DNA from: Patescibacteria group bacterium
GTDB taxonomy: Bacteria; Patescibacteriota; Patescibacteriia; Magasanikbacterales; GWA2-37-8
NCBI GenBank assembly: GCA_041649475.1
Contig: JBAZNA010000001.1
Span: 197,022 to 261,021 of the forward strand
Length of the DNA: 64,000 nucleotides
Direction of reading: 5' to 3'
Position numbers and translations under genes: made by a program. Numbering within the stretch: position 1 is the first letter of the stretch; each line of letters begins with the position of its first letter. Below, in pieces: positions 10,047-57,024 of the stretch. Under the pieces are notes generated by a model. That model was given only the letters and a program-made list of their open reading frames with translations. It ran no database searches and was not told where the DNA came from.

Positions 10047-10075
10047 TTGACAAAAAAATATTTTTAGTGTATTCT
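10047..10075 (+). promoter_or_regulatory. candidate promoter of GC-rich gene 1 (TTGACA-N17-TATTCT)
   Basis: The -35 hexamer is perfect and the -10 is moderate. The 5' UTR is about 70 nt and contains small hairpins. Confidence 0.4.
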
Positions 10076-10149
10076 TGGTGATTATTCCTTAGGTAAGGAA
10101 GCCCGGACCATTCCGGTTCGGGTATGATGATAGAGGAAGGAGAAAAAAG

Positions 10150-10497
10150 ATGGGAATGCGCGCGAAGGACTGGGAGGCGGCCCAGGCCGTTTTCTTGAAA
10201 GAGGCCGGTGCCGACCCTGACCCCGACGATTCGTGGACCGTAGTTCGGTCGCCGAGTTTGCAGGAGCTTCTGCTGGCAAAGGAGCAGGAGTTCCCGGTTG
10301 AGCTCGAGCTCTCCGACGGCCGCAAGATGACCGTGTTCGTCGAGGATATCAAGGACCCCGACGCGCACGGCGAAGTGGAGGTGTACGTAATGTACGTCGC
10401 CAACGGCAACCGGCGCCGGCGGTACCTGCACTTCACCCCCGACGTCTACGAGCCCAGGGTCAACGTCTACCCCGAGCCCAAGGAATCCGTGGGCTGA
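10150..10497 (+). CDS. GC-rich orphan protein 1 (115 aa, acidic, no recognised domain)
   Basis: AGGAG lies 7 nt before the ATG. Hand count gives 38/60 G+C in the first 60 nt. Third codon positions in this frame are overwhelmingly G/C. The gene has its own promoter and terminator. Confidence 0.65.
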   Translation: MGMRAKDWEAAQAVFLKEAGADPDPDDSWTVVRSPSLQELLLAKEQEFPVELELSDGRKMTVFVEDIKDPDAHGEVEVYVMYVANGNRRRRYLHFTPDVYEPRVNVYPEPKESVG

Positions 10498-10520
10498 CCC
10501 CACTTCCTCCCTCGTCTCAC

Positions 10521-10548
10521 GCCCAAGCATCTGCTTGGGCCTTTTTTT
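10521..10548 (+). terminator. intrinsic terminator
   Basis: Hairpin gcccaagc-atct-gcttgggc followed by cttttttt. Confidence 0.8.
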
Positions 10549-13500: not shown

Positions 13501-14055
13501 AAGGACTTGCCCAATCAGCCGCGCAACAGCCGGGTGGTGGTGGGCGGATTTATTGATTCCACCAAGAAAAAAATTACCAGAAGCGGCAAGGCGATGATGT
13601 TCGCCAAAATTCAGGATCTAAGCGGTGGGTTGGAACTTTTGATTTTCCCGCGCACCTTTGAAACCACCAAAGATGTTTGGCAAGAAGGAAAACCGGTTTG
13701 CGTGGTGGGCAAGACATCAGAAGAAGAAGGGGATGACAAACTGTTTGTGGACCGGGCGTATATTTTAACCAAAGAAAACGCGGCTACGCTGGCCATGCAA
13801 ATGAATATCAATCAGGGTGCGCCGTCTTTGCGCCAGTATGCGCCGAATTTTGTCAGTCCGGAAGAAGAGGGCTTTGAAGTTGTGGTCAGCCCGGCCAAGA
13901 TAAAAACCGAATCAGATAATATTAAAAAAATTCTAGGGAGGTATCCGGGCGATAAGGTGGTGTATATAAAAGTGGGGAATAAAAAAATAAAAAGCGGCTA
14001 CCGGGTGGACGGCTGCACAGAGTTGAAAGAAGAACTTAAACAATTTTCCAATTAG
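10588..14055 (+). CDS. dnaE: DNA polymerase III alpha subunit
   Basis: 1155 aa with an N-terminal PHP domain (HLHVHSHYSLLDG), a polymerase core and a C-terminal OB fold. Confidence 0.95.
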   Translation: MPDFVHLHVHSHYSLLDGLPKIDELVKHAKSLGMTALALTDHGNMYGAIEFYERCQKEGIKPIIGMEAYLAPGSRFDKNQNDKYYHLVLLALDYTGYRNLMKLASLAHLEGFYYKPRVDKELLKQYHEGLVASSACFGGEIPWILRKEDNFEKAKKVALEYEEIFGKGNFYLELQDLPGLEGQMEMNTKLIKLSQDTGVPLIVTRDVHYLKPEDAEAQDILTCIRDGRTLDEPNRQTMNAVDCSMASVKEIAGRFKHIPEALENTVKIAERANLVLELNKWHFPPLELPVGQTADSYLREQVYERLPKLLQITEEVKKRVDYELEIIAKKGYSPYFLTVADYVQYARDHGIAETTRGSAAGSIVSYAIGIVTVNPLYFKLPFERFLNPFRPSPPDIDADFADDRRDDMIAYVTQKYGADKVAQIITFGTMMARGAVRDVGRALGYTYSFCDQISKMIPFGAQGFHMNIAKAMELEPDLKKLYDQNPQAHRLLDLAQKVEGCARHTSIHAAGVVISPTPLTDFTPVQRETGGERITTQYEMHAVEAAGVLKMDFLGIRNLSILGHAVEIIEKTTGQKIDIYKLPWDDKKTYEMLARGETIGVFQLSGSGMTRYLKELKPASIFDIMAMVALFRPGPMESIPEYIKRKNHPELIEYLDPRMENYLDQSLGLIVYQDDVLLTAINLAGYNWEEADKFRKAMGKKIPEEMAKQKEKFFKGCREFGHLSEAKINTLWERIEPFAAYGFNKAHACSYGVVAYQTAYLKANFPVQYMTAILIAESGDIDKVPEIIHECERIGIKVLPPDVNESFKNFAMISPEDGSEPHIRFGLNGIKNLGEHIAEVIYRERKEHGTYKDLQDLLTRVNDKDLNKKSLESLAKCGALDCFGHDRGLLLANTDNLLGFVRQMHEKTQSNQNSLFSGTTIDLSAKVQLNPAPLADEADKLIWEKELLGLFVTSHPFKYFEKIMNGVLTPIKDLPNQPRNSRVVVGGFIDSTKKKITRSGKAMMFAKIQDLSGGLELLIFPRTFETTKDVWQEGKPVCVVGKTSEEEGDDKLFVDRAYILTKENAATLAMQMNINQGAPSLRQYAPNFVSPEEEGFEVVVSPAKIKTESDNIKKILGRYPGDKVVYIKVGNKKIKSGYRVDGCTELKEELKQFSN

Positions 14056-15034
14056 GGTCGGCCTTAAGGTTCCGCCAATTTGTAAAATCTTCTTTAAGGG
14101 TATGATAATATCCGGCCACGGCAATCATGGCCGCGTTGTCCATGCAGTATTTTAAGTCCGGATATTTTATGTTGCTGCCGGAAAGTGCATCGGCGAAGGT
14201 TTCCCGCAGTTTTAAATTTGCGCTCACGCCGCCGCCAACCACGATTGTCTTCGGCCGGAATTCTTGCACCGCTTTGACGGTTTTAGAAACCAAAACATCA
14301 ACAATGGCCTGTTCCAAACTGGCGCAAAAATCTTCCAGTGTAATTTTTTTATTGATTTTATGATCTCTTAACCAATAAAGAGCCGAGGTTTTCAGTCCGG
14401 CAAAACTAAAATTATAATTATCATCATTTATCATCGGCCGCGGAAATTTTATCGCCTGCGGATTTCCGTTTTTTCCCAGTTTAGAAATTTGCGGACCGCC
14501 CGGATAGGGGAGATCAACCAGCTTGGCCACCTTATCAAAACATTCTCCGGCTGCGTCGTCACGGGTCGCGCCCAGTAGTTTATATTGCCTGGGTTTTTTT
14601 ATTAAAATTAATTCGGTATGGCCGCCGCTCACCACCAAACACAAAGCTGGAAATTCTATCTTGGAGTCGGCCGCGATCTCCGTAGAATAAATATGGCCTT
14701 CAATATGATTTACTGCCACCACCGGAATTTTTAAAGCGTACGATAAAGTTCTGGCCGCTTCCACGCCTACCAATAATCCGGTAATCAGCCCGGGTCCGGC
14801 CGTGACCGCAATCGCATCCGGCTGGGGCTGGTTTTCCAAAATGAGTTCAATCAGCGGCGTAATTTTTTCCGCATGCGCCCGGCCGGCGATTTCCGGCACC
14901 ACCCCGCCGTATTTTTTGTGAATGTCAATTTGCGAAGCGGTTTTTTCCGATACCACAACGCAACCTTGGCTTGAACAATTGAGCAAGGCCACCGAAGTAT
15001 CGTCACAGGAACTTTCTATACCAAGAATAAGCAT
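14036..15034 (-). CDS. tsaD: tRNA N6-adenosine threonylcarbamoyltransferase
   Basis: MLILGIESSCDDTSVALL..., the HIEGH motif and GGVSAN. I moved the start to the ATG at 15034. The 39 extra codons in the track ORF run into the neighbouring GC-rich region. Confidence 0.9.
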   Translation of the reverse strand: MLILGIESSCDDTSVALLNCSSQGCVVVSEKTASQIDIHKKYGGVVPEIAGRAHAEKITPLIELILENQPQPDAIAVTAGPGLITGLLVGVEAARTLSYALKIPVVAVNHIEGHIYSTEIAADSKIEFPALCLVVSGGHTELILIKKPRQYKLLGATRDDAAGECFDKVAKLVDLPYPGGPQISKLGKNGNPQAIKFPRPMINDDNYNFSFAGLKTSALYWLRDHKINKKITLEDFCASLEQAIVDVLVSKTVKAVQEFRPKTIVVGGGVSANLKLRETFADALSGSNIKYPDLKYCMDNAAMIAVAGYYHTLKEDFTNWRNLKADPNWKIV

Positions 15035-15079
15035 ATTTTTCGCAATACCGAATTTCCTATTTAGAAACTCGGTATTACG

Positions 15080-15101
15080 GAGGAAGACGTGTGTCTTCCT
15101 C
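15080..15101 (-). terminator. 9-bp GC-rich hairpin downstream of GC-rich gene 2 (no clear U-tract)
   Basis: gaggaagac-gtgt-gtcttcctc, 17 nt after the stop codon. No T-run follows it. Confidence 0.35.
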
Positions 15102-15117
15102 GACTCCTTATGTCTCC

Positions 15118-15564
15118 TTATGGCCAGTTGAGTTCCGCCGGCATAGGCCAATCACTGGCGTCGAAACTCACGAATCCCGGCGTCCATTTGAACTTGGACG
15201 CTTCTCCCGGACCAGAAGTGCCCGTGAGCTCGTGAATTTTTTTAGAACTGAGCACCTTGAGCGGCGACATCTCTTTCGGCTCCGGGCTATCGATAGTGGC
15301 CTGGAGAGAATAACCAATCCCTTTCGTGGGATTGTAGAGGAGAAGTTGCGTGGCGACTTTTGCCCGTTTGTGCTCAAGGCAGTCCCACACCATCTTCAAG
15401 AGCGGCTTCTCCACTACGACCACAGGTTCATTATCCTCTGCAGTCAGAGCTGGGAATACACCCATCAGTCCGTGTTCGATCAGCAGTAGGTAACCGTACC
15501 GAAGCTGCCATCCGCTCAGATCCTTTTCGAAGATGCTTCCCAGCGCCGGTCCTTGTTTGCTCAT
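15118..15564 (-). CDS. GC-rich orphan protein 2 (148 aa, no recognised domain)
   Basis: GGAGG lies 5 nt before the ATG at 15564 (MSKQGPALG...). The track start at 15576 is a TTG that overlaps the SD. The gene begins 33 nt after the tRNA-Met 3' end. Confidence 0.6.
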   Translation of the reverse strand: MSKQGPALGSIFEKDLSGWQLRYGYLLLIEHGLMGVFPALTAEDNEPVVVVEKPLLKMVWDCLEHKRAKVATQLLLYNPTKGIGYSLQATIDSPEPKEMSPLKVLSSKKIHELTGTSGPGEASKFKWTPGFVSFDASDWPMPAELNWP

Positions 15565-15597
15565 GGTTTCCTCCAAGATCGAGATCGTTTTCCCGAG

Positions 15598-15671
15598 TGT
15601 CAGGGGAGGGAGTCGGACCCTCGACCTTAGGGTTATGAATCCTACGCTCTTACCAACTGAGCTACCCTGAC
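15598..15671 (-). tRNA. tRNA with CAU anticodon (elongator Met or lysidine-Ile2)
   Basis: Hand-folded cloverleaf with acceptor GTCAGGG/CCCTGAC, anticodon loop TTCATAA and T arm GAGGG-TCCGACT-CCCTC. CCA is not encoded. Confidence 0.9.
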
Positions 15672-15680
15672 ATTACCGAA

Positions 15681-15709
15681 AGTATACAAAAAAAAATGGC
15701 TTTAGTCAA
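15681..15709 (-). promoter_or_regulatory. promoter of tRNA-CAU (TTGACT-N17-TATACT)
   Basis: The -10 ends 9 nt before the first tRNA nucleotide. Confidence 0.55.
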
Positions 15710-15755: not shown

Positions 15756-16796
15756 GTGATTATGTTGGAAAAAAGGCCTTATGAAAACTCAATACCGCTT
15801 GTCGGCCAGAATCGGCCGTCTTTTGCTGTGGAAAAAGTTGTTTTGGGGCAGAAAAGAGAAGCCAGGGAGTGTTTGAGACGCTGTTATGAATATCGCGACA
15901 GCAAGGGTGAATTTATCGCCCAGGGGTTGGTTGATGTAAATGCCAAACCGTTTCCTATTGAATCGCCGGATCCAAAGCTTGGATTTTACAACGGCTGGAA
16001 GCTGGAGTCCTTTATTATTATATCCAAAGAAGGAAAAAAGCGTGACGTATTAAAAAATTTAAACAAAGACGGCCAGCCGCTGCCGGATATAGTCATAGAC
16101 GATTTGGTGGAGCAATGTGGGTATATCAATGAACCAAAAAAGATGATAGTCGTGCCGCCGCTTAAGTCCGCCAAAGAAATTGAAGAGTTGGTGCATGAAA
16201 ATATGCACGCACAACAGGATAATAACAGCCATTTTAAACCACTTTTGGATTTGTATGAATGGTCGGAGATGGATGCCGGTGCGCTTGGCGAGGCGGAAGT
16301 GGAAAAACGGTTGCGTGAAATTTTGCGGGCGGTTTCCCATTTTGGCGAAGCAAAAAAGTTTGCCAAGCAATTGAAGGATGATGTTACTTTTTTTGAAGGC
16401 GCACTGCGGTCTGGCAAAGTGCCGGCCTCTGAAGTGCCAAAGATGATGGAAGAGCGGGTCAAACGGATACAAAAAATGTTTTCTTTACCAATGCAGATAT
16501 GTGAGATAGACGCCGAAGACGGGGGATTAAAAGGGTTGGAAGAAATTAAAGAAACCATAGGCGCTGATTTTTTGGCGCCGTTTATCTGGACACCGTCAGT
16601 GATTGCCGACACCCCGCACTCCAGAGCGCTGGACGCGGAAGAAGAAAACCGCTTTGAGGTGTTGGGAACATCTGATTTATACGAGCAAAAGAAAAAATTT
16701 GAGCACGGCAAGCCGTCAGTCACCAGTGTGCCGGCGATTGTCAAAATGTATCTTGAATCCGTGGGCGCTTTGCCGGCGCCATGGGAAAAAGGTTGA
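15756..16796 (+). CDS. hypothetical protein with an HExxH motif (HENMH)
   Basis: 346-aa ORF. Only the putative metallopeptidase-like motif ELVHENMHAQ is recognisable. The start could be the ATG at 15762. Confidence 0.55.
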   Translation: MIMLEKRPYENSIPLVGQNRPSFAVEKVVLGQKREARECLRRCYEYRDSKGEFIAQGLVDVNAKPFPIESPDPKLGFYNGWKLESFIIISKEGKKRDVLKNLNKDGQPLPDIVIDDLVEQCGYINEPKKMIVVPPLKSAKEIEELVHENMHAQQDNNSHFKPLLDLYEWSEMDAGALGEAEVEKRLREILRAVSHFGEAKKFAKQLKDDVTFFEGALRSGKVPASEVPKMMEERVKRIQKMFSLPMQICEIDAEDGGLKGLEEIKETIGADFLAPFIWTPSVIADTPHSRALDAEEENRFEVLGTSDLYEQKKKFEHGKPSVTSVPAIVKMYLESVGALPAPWEKG

Positions 16797-16834
16797 CTTT
16801 CACCGAATTTTCTGGTATCATAATGCCGCACTAT

Positions 16835-16909
16835 GGCCCCATCGTCTAGTGGTTAGGACATCTCGCTTTCAATGAGAAAACACGGGTCCGATTCCCGTTG
16901 GGGCTACCA
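16835..16909 (+). tRNA. tRNA-Glu (UUC), CCA encoded
   Basis: GGCCCCATCGTCTAGTGGTTAGGAC..., anticodon loop CTTTCAA, T arm ACGGG-TCCGATT-CCCGT and a 3' ACCA. Confidence 0.9.
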
Positions 16910-18073: not shown

Positions 18074-18400
18074 TCACAGGACCACTTCTTCGTAGTAGTC
18101 GGCCCGCTCGTGGCTAGCGTAGGGGCTTGATTTGGCATCCTTGAGCGCAGCTGCGGCGAACGGTTCGTCTATGGTGACCTCGGCAACGTTCTCGCACTTG
18201 GCGATCAACAGCTGACAACCATCACAGCCGAATCCGGTCACGGTTGCCAGAACCAGCGCCTCCTTGATCTTCGGTACCCGGCCCTCTTTGCGGATGGCTT
18301 CGGCCACATCGGCCGCGTTTTCTCCACCGCAGTCGGTCCAGAACTTGAAAACAACCTCATCACCCTTGCGCACACTAACGAGTCCGGTTTTTCCGTGCAT
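18074..18400 (-). CDS. GC-rich orphan protein 3 (108 aa; contains a CDGC CxxC motif)
   Basis: AAGGAGG lies 6 nt before the ATG, and the SD starts on the stop codon of the upstream low-GC oxidase gene (cctAAGGAGGggtgatATG). G+C rises abruptly at this junction. Confidence 0.6.
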   Translation of the reverse strand: MHGKTGLVSVRKGDEVVFKFWTDCGGENAADVAEAIRKEGRVPKIKEALVLATVTGFGCDGCQLLIAKCENVAEVTIDEPFAAAALKDAKSSPYASHERADYYEEVVL

Positions 18401-29473: not shown

Positions 29474-29504
29474 AAAAAAAGAGCTTCCCTGGGGAGGGAA
29501 GTTC
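29474..29504 (-). terminator. intrinsic terminator of GC-rich gene 5
   Basis: On the minus strand: gaacttccct-cccc-agggaagctc followed by ttttttt. Confidence 0.75.
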
Positions 29505-29580
29505 AGTGGGGGTTGGCTCCGGTGTGATCGCCTGATGGCGAATTGGAGCACGGTAGGAAAGAGCAGGGCGGGGCGGCTGG

Positions 29581-29922
29581 CTAGCCGGCGGCGGAAGCGG
29601 CGATGGGGGCGATCTTGGGCTGGATGTCGATCACGGGGATCGGCTCGGGCAGACCGTCGAAGCGCTGGCGGAGCCAGTCGATCTCGGGCTCCGAGGCCTC
29701 GCCCATGAAGATCTCGATGTAGAACGTCCCCCTGATGAGGCCCTCGTACTTCAGCTTGAAGCCGGGGATCTCGTCGTCGAAGTCGGCCTTGTGCGGCCTG
29801 TTGACGTACCTGTTGAAGTCGTTGAGCGAGCAGTACCTGACGCTGCCGTCCACGAACTGGATCCGTACGGCCCTTGTCTGCAAGGTCGTGTCCGGGAACG
29901 TCATCAGCTTCTGGATCGGCAT
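29581..29922 (-). CDS. GC-rich orphan protein 5 (113 aa, no recognised domain)
   Basis: AAGGAG lies 6 nt before the ATG at 29922 (MPIQKLMTFPD...). The longer track ORF start has no SD. Confidence 0.6.
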   Translation of the reverse strand: MPIQKLMTFPDTTLQTRAVRIQFVDGSVRYCSLNDFNRYVNRPHKADFDDEIPGFKLKYEGLIRGTFYIEIFMGEASEPEIDWLRQRFDGLPEPIPVIDIQPKIAPIAASAAG

Positions 29923-30037
29923 CTCCCTCTCCTTGGGACTACGAGCTCGTGTGACCATCTTGTTATGCCTCCCTTGTTTCCGTGTTGGGCCCAATGCCCC
30001 TAAACTTGTTGGCCTTGTCCAGGCCGTGATGGGCTAA

Positions 30038-30066
30038 ATGGTATCACAATAATACGATTATGTCAA
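30038..30066 (-). promoter_or_regulatory. candidate promoter of GC-rich gene 5 (TTGACA-N17-TACCAT)
   Basis: It lies back-to-back with the infB promoter and implies a GC-rich 5' UTR of about 108 nt. Confidence 0.45.
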
Positions 30067-41855: not shown

Positions 41856-41884
41856 TTGACCAATTGTCTTTTTTATGCTAAAGT
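41856..41884 (+). promoter_or_regulatory. promoter of GC-rich gene 6 (TTGACC-N17-TAAAGT)
   Basis: ttgacc aattgtcttttttatgc taaagt. The 5' UTR contains the hairpin cctgcc-agagaaa-ggcagg. Confidence 0.55.
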
Positions 41885-41931
41885 ATGTGGTTCCTGCCAG
41901 AGAAAGGCAGGTCAGAAAGGAGGCCTCTCGG

Positions 41932-42312
41932 ATGACACGGGTCATGAGTTTGATGGCTTTCTACGCGACTTATCGTCTCTTAAAGGTCGCGTACCGTGCG
42001 ACCGAGAGACAGCTTAGGCTATTCTTCGTCCCCAAGCCGGGGTGCGAGGGGGCCTACGAGGTGGATGAGCAAATCTTCGCCAAGGTTCGGACGCTCATCG
42101 TCAATTCCAGGTCGTTTCAGACCGAAATCTACCCGCTGAACGCCAGTGACGTGGGGGAAGATTTCCGCCTTGGCGACCAGGATTTCACCGGCTCGGTGAT
42201 GGTCTGGCTGAAGGAAGTAGATCCTTTAGACGCACTGTTTACCGACAGAATCAAGGAGGTTGTGTTCGGAGAGGAGAAAGAGTATCGCTTTCAGTGCGGT
42301 TCCCGCAACTAG
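41932..42312 (+). CDS. GC-rich orphan protein 6 (126 aa, no recognised domain)
   Basis: AAGGAGG lies 8 nt before the ATG at 41932 (MTRVMSLMAFY...). The earlier track start lies inside the promoter. Confidence 0.6.
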   Translation: MTRVMSLMAFYATYRLLKVAYRATERQLRLFFVPKPGCEGAYEVDEQIFAKVRTLIVNSRSFQTEIYPLNASDVGEDFRLGDQDFTGSVMVWLKEVDPLDALFTDRIKEVVFGEEKEYRFQCGSRN

Positions 42313-55838: not shown

Positions 55839-56504
55839 ATGGCGACCGCAAAACAGATTCCGTTTTTGATGGGAAGGTTGGTGGAGCATCAGTTTTACTT
55901 CTGTGCTTTGTCCACCGCAAGCGCCACGTGGGCGAGCCAAAACCCGAAAGACGCCATTGCCTTGTGCGTGGCGGCGATCGAGAATCGCCAAAAGGAGCGT
56001 CAGTCCGACCCGGCGCCTTCGCCACTCCTCACCTTGGTCGGTGCCGTCGTGATCTGGCTGGCCGTGAGGTTCGTTGCCAGTGAACACCTGGTGAAGAATA
56101 CCGAGAAGAACGCGCCGGTGAAGATTTCCTACATCTTCGATAAGGTCACCGTGTGGTTCCAGGGCAAGATCGAGGAGCGGGTCGAGGGCGAGATGGCTCT
56201 GTGCTGCCATACCCTGAACTCCGACTCGGACGATAACCTCATCATCAACCAGCTCGGCGGCGAGACCAAGGCCGAGACCGCCCTTGCCGAGGTCTTTGCC
56301 TGCTTGGAGAAGCAACCCAACGGCGAGGATGGTGCGCTACTCACTAACGGCCACGCGAACATCTTCTATGTTCGCAACACCGAAGGTGTGTTGTGCGTGA
56401 TCCAAGTGATCTGGCGCGGTGACGGTTGGACCTTCTACACCCGTTCGGTCGGTTCTCTGGACACATGTACCGAGGGCCGCCGGGTGTTCTCCCGCGCCGC
56501 ATAG
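55839..56504 (+). CDS. GC-rich orphan protein 7 (221 aa; one hydrophobic segment LLTLVGAVVIWLAVRFVA)
   Basis: AAGGAG lies 7 nt before the ATG. A strong terminator follows the gene. No recognisable domain. Confidence 0.6.
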   Translation: MATAKQIPFLMGRLVEHQFYFCALSTASATWASQNPKDAIALCVAAIENRQKERQSDPAPSPLLTLVGAVVIWLAVRFVASEHLVKNTEKNAPVKISYIFDKVTVWFQGKIEERVEGEMALCCHTLNSDSDDNLIINQLGGETKAETALAEVFACLEKQPNGEDGALLTNGHANIFYVRNTEGVLCVIQVIWRGDGWTFYTRSVGSLDTCTEGRRVFSRAA

Positions 56505-56524: not shown

Positions 56525-56556
56525 GCCCCGCCTGTCAGATGGTGGGGCATTTTTTT
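56525..56556 (+). terminator. intrinsic terminator
   Basis: gccccgcc-tgtcagat-ggtggggc followed by attttttt. Confidence 0.8.
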
Positions 56557-56565
56557 ATCCAAATC

Positions 56566-56594
56566 TTGACAAAACCCCTCATTTGTGCTATAGT
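56566..56594 (+). promoter_or_regulatory. rnpB promoter (TTGACA-N17-TATAGT, extended TGc)
   Basis: ttgaca aaacccctcatttgtgc tatagt. The -10 ends 7 nt before the P1 stem. Confidence 0.65.
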
Positions 56595-56600
56595 TAACCC

Positions 56601-56994
56601 ATTCATAGCGGATGATCGAGCCGACTTAGTCGGCTAGGAAAGTCCGAACACCCAAGATGGCAGTGGGTAACGCCCACCGCTACGGTGGCAACGCCGTGGT
56701 TGGGAAAGTGGCACAGAGACAATTCTAACCCCGACAAGCTCGGGGTAAAAGGTGAAAAGTGTATGGGGGATTTGGTTCTCGAGACCAAAGCTACTATACT
56801 CGGCTGATAGCAATATCAGTTCGTGCTAAACCCTGCCTGGTGCAAGAGCAGCGTTTCGCGGCGCAAAACCGCGGTTCGAAAAGTTCGCTCGCTAGAACGC
56901 GTTAGCAATAACGCGTCCAGATAAATGATCGTCACCTCGCCCCATTTTTAAACAAAATGGTGCGGAGCACAAAATTCGGCTTATAGCTATGAAT
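56601..56994 (+). ncRNA. rnpB: RNase P RNA (bacterial type A)
   Basis: P1 pairing attcatagc/gctatgaat. P4 strands GGAAAGTCCGAACAC and ACAAAATTCGGCTTAT. Also GGGTAACGCCCAC, GGGAAAGTGGCACAGAGA and AGATAAATGATCG. Confidence 0.9.
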
Positions 56995-57024
56995 AAAAAA
57001 GACGACCCGCAAGGGCCGTCTTTT
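56995..57024. terminator. bidirectional intrinsic terminator
   Basis: aaaaaa gacgaccc-gcaa-gggccgtc tttt, between rnpB (+) and the convergent 57040..58578 gene (-). Confidence 0.75.

Follow-up and report, generated by a model that had tools for sequence, protein, structure and literature searches.

A foreign small gene lodged between tRNA(CAU) and tsaD in a Patescibacteria genome and probably transcribed from the tRNA promoter

How did a small GC-rich gene come to lie directly behind a tRNA gene, and what transcribes it there? The question is raised by a stretch of 64,000 nucleotides (nt) from a Patescibacteria group bacterium (assembly GCA_041649475.1, contig JBAZNA010000001.1, positions 197,022 to 261,021), analysed over its full length and referred to here as the window. 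On its minus strand a promoter-like site is followed by tRNA(CAU), a Shine-Dalgarno (SD) site with an open reading frame (ORF) of 148 amino acids (aa), hairpins and tsaD. An initial annotation of this DNA had predicted that the tRNA and the ORF form one transcript started at the tRNA promoter. Our best explanation, to which we assign a probability of about 0.7, is that a foreign insert of ~550 bp lies in an ancestral tRNA-Met/tsaD operon and that its ORF is co-transcribed from the tRNA promoter.

All of the features that the initial annotation described were recovered at its coordinates. The sigma-70-type promoter-like site, TTGACT-N17-TATACT (15681-15709, minus strand, as are all features of the unit), matches the consensus at 10/12 positions, has a predicted start at about 15674 and ends 9 nt ahead of tRNA(CAU). 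The tRNA (15598-15671, with its edge at 15597/15598) was called by ARAGORN and matches Rfam RF00005 with 67 bits. CCA is not encoded, the discriminator A being followed by CTCGGG. Because it carries a G1-C72 pair and A37, we take it, by established identity rules, to be of the elongator type and not an initiator, a class that here covers both Met and lysidine-Ile2. Its T-loop is TCCGACT, with C at position 55, which is U in nearly all tRNAs; TTCGAnT is the form in most relatives, and one of them (L109) has TCCGATT. An A31-C39 mismatch in the anticodon stem is conserved in this tRNA lineage.

The inserted DNA begins directly past the discriminator base with a spacer of 32-33 nt (15565-15597) that holds no promoter-like or terminator-like site. 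Within it the GGAGG at 15574-15570 begins at the 23rd nt past the ARAGORN tRNA end and stands 5 nt before the ATG at 15564, which is itself 32 nt past that end. The ORF (15118-15564) encodes a protein of an uncharacterised family that begins MSKQGPALGSIFEKDLSGWQ. The 83 nt between ORF and tsaD contain two neighbouring stable hairpins (15041-15101), recognised by inverted repeats and folding, which form the 3' part of the inserted DNA; one has a stem of 9 bp (15080-15101) and the other a stem of about 16-17 bp with a loop of 5-7 nt (15041-15079). This spacer has a minimum free energy of -44.9 kcal/mol (z = -7.3), and none of 200 shuffles folds equally well. The second hairpin stops 6 nt ahead of the tsaD ATG. 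No T-run follows the hairpins, the terminator scan does not flag them and their arms have no second copy within the window; roles in processing, stabilisation or insulation are possible. For the second hairpin, with 13-17 bp counted in its stem, the role of a tRNA-like minihelix open to cleavage by nucleases was considered too, and evidence pointed neither way.

The last gene of the unit, tsaD (14036-15034; PF00814, 309.9 bits, E = 2.2e-92, above the gathering score), encodes the tRNA threonylcarbamoyltransferase responsible for N6-threonylcarbamoyladenosine at position 37 (t6A37) and converges on dnaE. It starts without an SD site in an A-rich context (gcgaaaaatATG), resembling the SD-less starts of other host genes. 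Gene callers had placed the TsaD start at TTG 15151 (371 aa), overlapping the end of the 148-aa ORF; the alignment of relatives puts it at ATG 15034 (332 aa). Since the N-termini of all relatives align from residue 1 (MLILGIESSC, in the pattern M-x-I-L-G-I-E-S-S-C), the start codon is not in doubt.

What did this locus look like before the ORF was there? Relatives were found by a TsaD search of GTDB species-representative genomes and JGI metagenomes, and their loci were labelled L###. They are Magasanikbacteria-like loci whose full-length TsaD identity to the window never exceeds 70%, one partial match reaching 75%. A same-strand tRNA-Met lies upstream of tsaD in 42 distinct related loci, which form the basis of the spacing counts. 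From the ARAGORN tRNA end to the tsaD ATG the distance is 0-18 nt in 25/42, many of these having 1-3 nt; it is 19-200 nt in a further 8/42 and more than 200 nt in 9/42. Moreover, 30 of 41 related loci carry TTGACN-N16-18-TANNNT no more than 70 nt ahead of the homologous tRNA, and in L092, whose gene order is most similar to that of the window, the site is TTGACT-N17-TATACT, identical to ours. The abutment of tRNA and tsaD spans the whole clade, at 53-70% TsaD identity.

An ATG 0-8 nt after the tRNA leaves space for neither promoter nor ribosome-binding site, and therefore the tRNA promoter must drive tsaD in these relatives. Judged from gene spacing, tRNA-Met/tsaD is thus an old and apparently obligate co-transcription unit of the clade, and since the tRNA abuts tsaD and has a promoter of the same type ahead of it, a downstream gene that is transcribed from the tRNA promoter would be the ancestral state. 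The tsaD mRNA of these relatives would be leaderless, or nearly so, once the tRNA 3' end is processed. The co-transcript predicted by the initial annotation gains support both from this abutment and from the lack of signals in the insert, which is taken up below. TsaD installs t6A37 on ANN-decoding tRNAs, the elongator Met and Ile2 tRNAs included; because its substrates comprise this class, the operon ties the enzyme to one of its own substrates.

Variants of the arrangement occur. In L051 (4924-5001) and L134 it is tRNA-Glu that abuts tsaD, with a 4-nt spacer, and L096 (2846-3001) reads tRNA-Met, 5 nt, tRNA-Trp, 3 nt, tsaD. In L022 (4903-5000) and L113 (674-802) a GC-rich element of ~95 nt is conserved between tRNA-Met and tsaD (local alignment z = 17.6). 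Some of its changes look compensatory, e.g. CTTCGGAC...TTTCCGACG vs CTTAAGAA...TTTCTTACG. The element scores below the gathering threshold of every Rfam family and may be a novel structured leader or processing RNA. Across the short GC-rich tRNA-tsaD spacers of the relatives Rfam returned tRNAs only.

Compared with the abutting state, ~550 bp (about 15045-15596) have been added between tRNA and tsaD in the window, and the ORF that they carry looks foreign in composition. As the initial annotation had stated, the ORF is GC-rich: its GC content is 0.537, while 447-nt windows average 0.435 (sd 0.049) and only 2.8% of them reach the ORF value, and its GC at third codon positions (GC3) is 0.62 vs about 0.47 in neighbouring genes. 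An SD-like motif such as the one preceding the ORF lies upstream of only 8/47 long ORFs in the window and 40/345 in related loci (L003-L053), and about half of the window's eight SD-bearing ORFs are GC-rich small ORFs. Start codons of the lineage are preceded by A/T-rich sequence instead of an SD site.

Neither a hidden Markov model (HMM) of the ORF's family, run on the ORFs of about 160 related tsaD loci, nor a tblastn search with the 148-aa protein found any member there. The comparison of the junction in relatives, which the initial annotation had proposed, thus finds that the ORF is not a universal companion of this tRNA. It could be argued that the ORF stood between tRNA and tsaD from the outset and was repeatedly lost, and indeed no relative above 75% TsaD identity is at hand to show an empty site. 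Yet the abutment is clade-wide at 53-70% TsaD identity, the family is missing from the related tsaD loci, the inserts seen elsewhere at this junction are mutually unrelated, and the composition and SD site of the ORF are unlike those of host genes; we consider repeated loss scarcely credible. Instead, the added DNA very probably represents, on these comparisons, an insertion inside a conserved tRNA-tsaD operon and not an ancestral gene.

The window is not alone in this. Unrelated inserts occupy the tRNA/tsaD junction in at least nine lineages. They include a 195-aa SD-led ORF (L012/L101), a GC-rich 132-aa ORF (L014/L102), two small opposite-strand ORFs (L015), a 297-aa ORF (L017), a 149-aa opposite-strand ORF (L114), an ORF of 166-170 aa (L115 and L129) and one of 89 aa (L120). 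In L012 the foreign ORF begins 44 nt after the tRNA, has a GGAGG and is separated from the tRNA by no promoter, giving a second example of an ORF placed behind a tRNA in this manner. The initial annotation had described the location as one next to a tRNA, a classic site of insertion. That part stands, as the insert is at the tRNA 3' end and the junction has been reused in at least nine lineages; the site is more than adjacent to a tRNA, however, being inside a conserved tRNA-tsaD operon.

Does the insert carry signals of its own? The initial annotation had found no promoter belonging to the ORF, and our scan for sigma-70 consensus-type sites agrees: at a threshold of 9/12 consensus matches there is no second minus-strand promoter-like site from 15680 to the tsaD start at 15034. 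Reading by eye, we saw no -35 element to match any TANNNT hexamer of the tRNA or spacer. Nor is there a minus-strand hairpin with a T-run between tRNA and tsaD, except a weak one inside the ORF at 15334-15315. The inserts of L012, L014 and L017 at the same junction do have terminator-like hairpins, new promoter-like sites before tsaD, or both, and since these were flagged, the scan picks up promoters and terminators of the lineage where they are present. Promoter-like matches are frequent in this A/T-rich region (10 found vs 3.8 expected), and therefore the call of the tRNA promoter rests mainly on its conserved position in relatives.

These observations bear on a different account, under which unrecognised promoters, situated for instance inside the tRNA or in the hairpin region, drive the ORF, tsaD or both, so that tRNA and ORF are separate transcripts. 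Promoters of Patescibacteria have not been characterised experimentally and our scan sees consensus sigma-70 sites only; in L014, moreover, a promoter-like site overlaps the tRNA 3' end, so internal promoters do occur at this junction. Against this, the coding strand holds no site of at least 9/12 between 15680 and 15034, the TANNNT hexamers of tRNA and spacer lack a -35, the lineage does use consensus TTGACN/TANNNT elements (30/41 loci) and 25 relatives leave no room for a tsaD promoter. We regard separate promoters as unlikely, and prefer transcription of the ORF from the tRNA promoter.

On that preferred reading, the following course of events is proposed. Foreign DNA of ~550 bp would have landed directly behind tRNA(CAU), inside a two-gene tRNA-Met/tsaD operon, bringing one SD-led gene (148 aa) and two hairpins and neither promoter nor terminator. 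The promoter at 15709-15681 would give a single precursor made up of a short leader, the tRNA, the ORF, the hairpins and tsaD. RNase P, whose RNA is encoded in the same window (56600-56999) in support of this scheme, would cut the tRNA 5' end. An endonuclease acting at the 3' end would cut after the discriminator and yield an ORF-tsaD mRNA; as the gene lacks an encoded CCA, RNase Z is the likeliest candidate. The ORF would then be translated by way of its GGAGG, and tsaD without an SD site, as is customary in this host, starting in the A-rich sequence that follows the second hairpin. Because the insert adds neither a promoter nor a terminator, expression of tsaD would need read-through across the ORF. 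The initial annotation had left the release of the mRNA to RNase P or RNase Z. We retain RNase Z as the predicted enzyme, but RNase P would not free the 5' end of the mRNA.

Several points weigh against this explanation. Co-transcription, the processing enzymes and translation are deduced from the DNA. An atypical promoter may lie inside the tRNA or the spacer, the weak terminator-like hairpin at 15334-15315 falls inside the ORF, and the very stable hairpins before tsaD could act as a read-through attenuator or a processing site. The closest relatives have about 70-75% TsaD identity and the collections searched hold no sister strain with an empty site. Lastly, neither a tRNA 3'-end repeat nor an integrase marks the route by which the insert arrived.

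How, then, might foreign DNA have reached this junction? In line with the initial annotation, which had found no repeat of the tRNA 3' end and no integrase, the tRNA, aligned locally to the 562-nt gap, scores 20 at best, as do 9% of shuffles or more highly still, and no integrase family is among the Pfam hits of called genes within 10 kb on either side, several genes there being without a hit. Two relatives present a different picture. In L092 (584-765) the tRNA 3' end is repeated (29/32 nt) about 117 nt downstream. The repeat continues into a hairpin, GAGGAGTyCCGCGAAAGCGGGAC, which is likewise present twice, and a strongly folding segment of 67% GC (z = -6.2) lies between the repeats. In L114 (2203-3000) the tRNA 3' end is repeated (22/23 nt) 108 nt downstream. 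These repeats look like an attachment-site (att)-like footprint or a tRNA-derived pseudo-element, and because of them site-specific integration followed by decay is plausible for the junction, although the window itself shows no such trace.

The insert of the window could accordingly be viewed as a decayed mobile element that integrated site-specifically at the tRNA 3' end and has lost its integrase and att repeat, a history that is compatible with co-transcription. It begins exactly at the tRNA 3' end, L092 and L114 carry repeats, and at least nine lineages hold unrelated inserts. However, the gap in the window has no significant tRNA repeat, no integrase was found among the Pfam hits within 10 kb or in the inserts seen in relatives, and the pattern would arise without site-specific integration if inserted DNA survived only where the site is permissive and transcribed. 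We find decay of an integrative element rather doubtful for the window, while the alternative for the inserts in general is just such survival, at a site that is permissive and already transcribed. The explanation that we favour, a foreign insert co-transcribed from the tRNA promoter, holds with either route.

The arrangement shares features with several known systems. tRNA-mRNA operons are known in bacteria, for example thrU-tyrU-glyT-thrT-tufB of E. coli. There, as presumably here, a tRNA and a protein gene depend on one upstream promoter and tRNA nucleases must release the mRNA; unlike there, the ancestral spacer here is 0-18 nt (giving a near-leaderless mRNA), the partner is tsaD and a foreign gene lies between. 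With tRNA-targeted integrative elements and islands the locus shares deviating composition at a tRNA 3' end, a reused junction and repeats in two relatives. It differs from them in that the window has no integrase or att repeat and that its insert of ~550 bp holds one gene with no expression signals of its own. Like phage morons and accessory cassettes, the insert is a single small gene of deviating GC between conserved neighbours, and its family occurs in a 195-kb viral contig; classical morons, however, bring a promoter and a terminator, whereas this insert brings neither and would rely on the tRNA promoter. Operons of this mixed kind and insertion hotspots beside tRNA genes are both well known; the locus is an instructive case of them, no new mechanism is involved and current concepts are unchanged.

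In mitochondria, tRNA punctuation means that excision of tRNAs frees mRNAs, many of which are leaderless (PMC3790967). The likeness is that, with the tsaD ATG of relatives 0-8 nt after the tRNA, tRNA 3' processing would set the 5' end of the mRNA; the difference is that a single locus in a free-standing bacterial lineage is concerned, known from its DNA, and that the insertion in the window has broken the punctuation. The literature searched holds no account of tRNA/tsaD abutment or of leaderless bacterial mRNAs generated by tRNA excision, and one paper that was examined (PMC3848588) proved not relevant. The clade-wide abutment and its repeated use as a landing site seem to be unreported in that literature.

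Is the ORF a real gene? A word-indexed search of 5.8 billion protein clusters returned only the protein itself, and it appeared to be an orphan; this status fell when an exhaustive HMMER search found a family. Run with phmmer on 1.84 billion representatives, it gave 180 proteins at E <= 1e-3, 48 of them at <= 1e-10, with about residues 5-140 aligned. Most members measure 125-160 aa and share 25-43% identity with the query; a longer subset, of about 255 aa, has an N-terminal Cys-rich extension. The family motifs are DLxGWQ, HGLMGxFPA, LLxxVW..L..R.AK and PFxWAPGL; G35 and W127 are invariant and H31, G32, L33, M34, F37, P38, A39, F125 and G130 nearly so, and the window protein departs from the family at none of them. 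All hits with a named source are from Patescibacteria. Their genomic contexts vary from genome to genome, members standing singly between housekeeping genes, and a strong SD site precedes all four homologues whose upstream sequence was read. The protein is on record from a 963-kb contig of a Patescibacteria metagenome-assembled genome and from two other assemblies whose DNA is 100% identical to the window, making three identical assemblies.

None of the family hits contains a Pfam domain, and the 148-aa protein itself gave nothing above threshold in Pfam, PHROGs, NCBIfam or PADLOC. An AlphaFold2 model built from 61 sequences has a predicted local distance difference test score (pLDDT) of 86 and a predicted template modelling score (pTM) of 0.78, and Foldseek of this model against PDB and against BFVD gave no match at E <= 0.001. 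The fold is thus predicted with confidence and resembles none that is known. Given the 180 representatives, the retained family residues, the confident model and the SD sites of homologues, the ORF can be taken as a real gene on the strength of its sequence.

One could still hold that it is a silent or decaying passenger, untranslated or useless, and that only the tRNA and tsaD work. Its function and fold are unassigned, the three identical assemblies offer no polymorphism with which to test selection, and an SD-led gene may be poorly translated in an SD-poor host. But the frame is intact and of full length, every invariant or nearly invariant residue is kept in a family of only 25-43% identity, and the SD spacing of 5 nt is ideal. 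A passenger is therefore, in our judgement, very unlikely, and we continue to read the ORF as a working gene that would be expressed with its operon.

One family member lies in a viral contig of 195 kb from IMG/VR, a huge phage, 38 nt downstream of a tRNA-Ile/tRNA-Asn pair. A region of this contig (L173, = L085/L086; 504-6186) carries a suppressor-like tRNA (called with a 4-base anticodon, ttca), transfer-messenger RNA (tmRNA) and tRNA-Met, -Ile, -Asn and -Arg, and the neighbours of the family member include YopX-like, ARPP-1 and RecA genes. A tblastn search with the ORF and with P0021 against 50,697 deposited phage genomes found nothing.

Might the protein be related to Csx15? Csx15 is a CARF-superfamily sponge and slow ring nuclease for cyclic tetra-adenylate (cA4), with a conserved H82 of PfCsx15 at the ligand interface (PMC13148439). 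The NCBIfam model CAS_Csx15 (NF040560) gave weak hits (E <= 1) to 20/61 family members, the best with 21.4 bits (E = 2.3e-4) against a cut-off of 35 bits, and no hit to the window protein. We rebuilt a Csx15 profile from 16 sequences of the supplementary alignment of PMC13148439, and hhalign aligned it with the family over 28 columns only, with a probability of 74% and E = 2.9e-5. The aligned part is a strand plus the loop HG[LR]xGxFP. This beta-hairpin loop is common to Csx15 and the window family and is the most conserved motif of both, reading LHGLLGHFP in PfCsx15 and EHGLMGVFP in the window protein (H31-G32-L-M-G35-V-F37-P38). Two further hallmarks of Csx15, NFS(G)H near the N-terminus (S9/H11) and an arginine cluster near the C-terminus (R116/R120/R123), are missing from the family consensus, and a CARF or Rossmann-like fold was not detected for the family. 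Scoring below the cut-off, with the other motifs absent and no CARF fold, the ORF is not assigned to Csx15 and only the shared motif is left, a hint that the protein might bind a nucleotide ligand.

A broader picture can be drawn, tentatively and with the odds clearly against it as a whole. In it, the tRNA(CAU)-tsaD unit of Magasanikbacteria would be an operon punctuated in the mitochondrial style, in which excision of the tRNA yields a leaderless or near-leaderless tsaD mRNA and couples the enzyme to the flow of its substrate. The junction would be a recurrent landing pad that expresses foreign genes lacking signals, and the captured gene would belong to a family of new fold, shared with a huge phage and bearing a Csx15-like nucleotide-binding loop, which could serve as a signalling-nucleotide sponge or an anti-defence protein. 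If true, a bacterial lineage of the free-living type would set an mRNA 5' end by tRNA excision, as mitochondria do, for the very modifier of that tRNA class. The transcribed tRNA junction would likewise be a permissive site expressing promoterless foreign genes, which bears on the gain of accessory genes in the very small genomes of Patescibacteria. It would also add a confidently folded, unannotated family (180 cluster representatives, in Patescibacteria and one huge phage) with a loop in common with the cA4-binding Csx15.

On the other side of the tRNA promoter, a 346-aa ORF (15756-16796, plus strand) whose match to a DUF6782-like metallopeptidase is weak and falls short of the cut-off (E = 4e-4) occupies the spacer to a divergent tRNA-Glu(UUC) (16835-16909, plus strand). 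The latter is a conserved neighbour of the tRNA-Met/tsaD unit and has its own promoter-like site at 16793-16821. The tRNA-Met/tRNA-Glu spacer measures 102-119 nt in L006, L007, L012 and L093, and among related loci a homologue of the ORF, 75% identical, is found in L092 only. From this distribution the 346-aa ORF seems to have been inserted at the tRNA pair as well, as a second lineage-specific addition.

The window contains other small GC-rich ORFs (GC3 0.68-0.93), at 10150-10497 (+), 18074-18400 (-), 29581-29958 (-), 55839-56504 (+) and 41875-42312 (+). Each except the last is preceded by GGAGG or AGGAG, which is hardly ever the case for host genes. The window's five or six GC-rich ORFs are unrelated to one another and match no Pfam, PHROG, PADLOC or NCBIfam family above threshold, and the surroundings of these cassettes have no inverted repeats in common. 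Cassettes 1 (10047-10540) and 4 (29484-30066) are self-contained, each with a TTGACA-N17 promoter-like site of its own and a T-run hairpin resembling a terminator, whereas the insert behind tRNA(CAU), cassette 2, has neither. The orf128-dnaE spacer is 594 nt in the window vs about 85-150 nt in L005, L006 and L007, where cassette 1 is absent. RNase P RNA (class A, 175 bits, Rfam) is encoded in the window at 56600-56999 (+), and a near-consensus extended -10 promoter (56566-56594) serves it directly after the terminator of cassette 5 (region 56525-56999).

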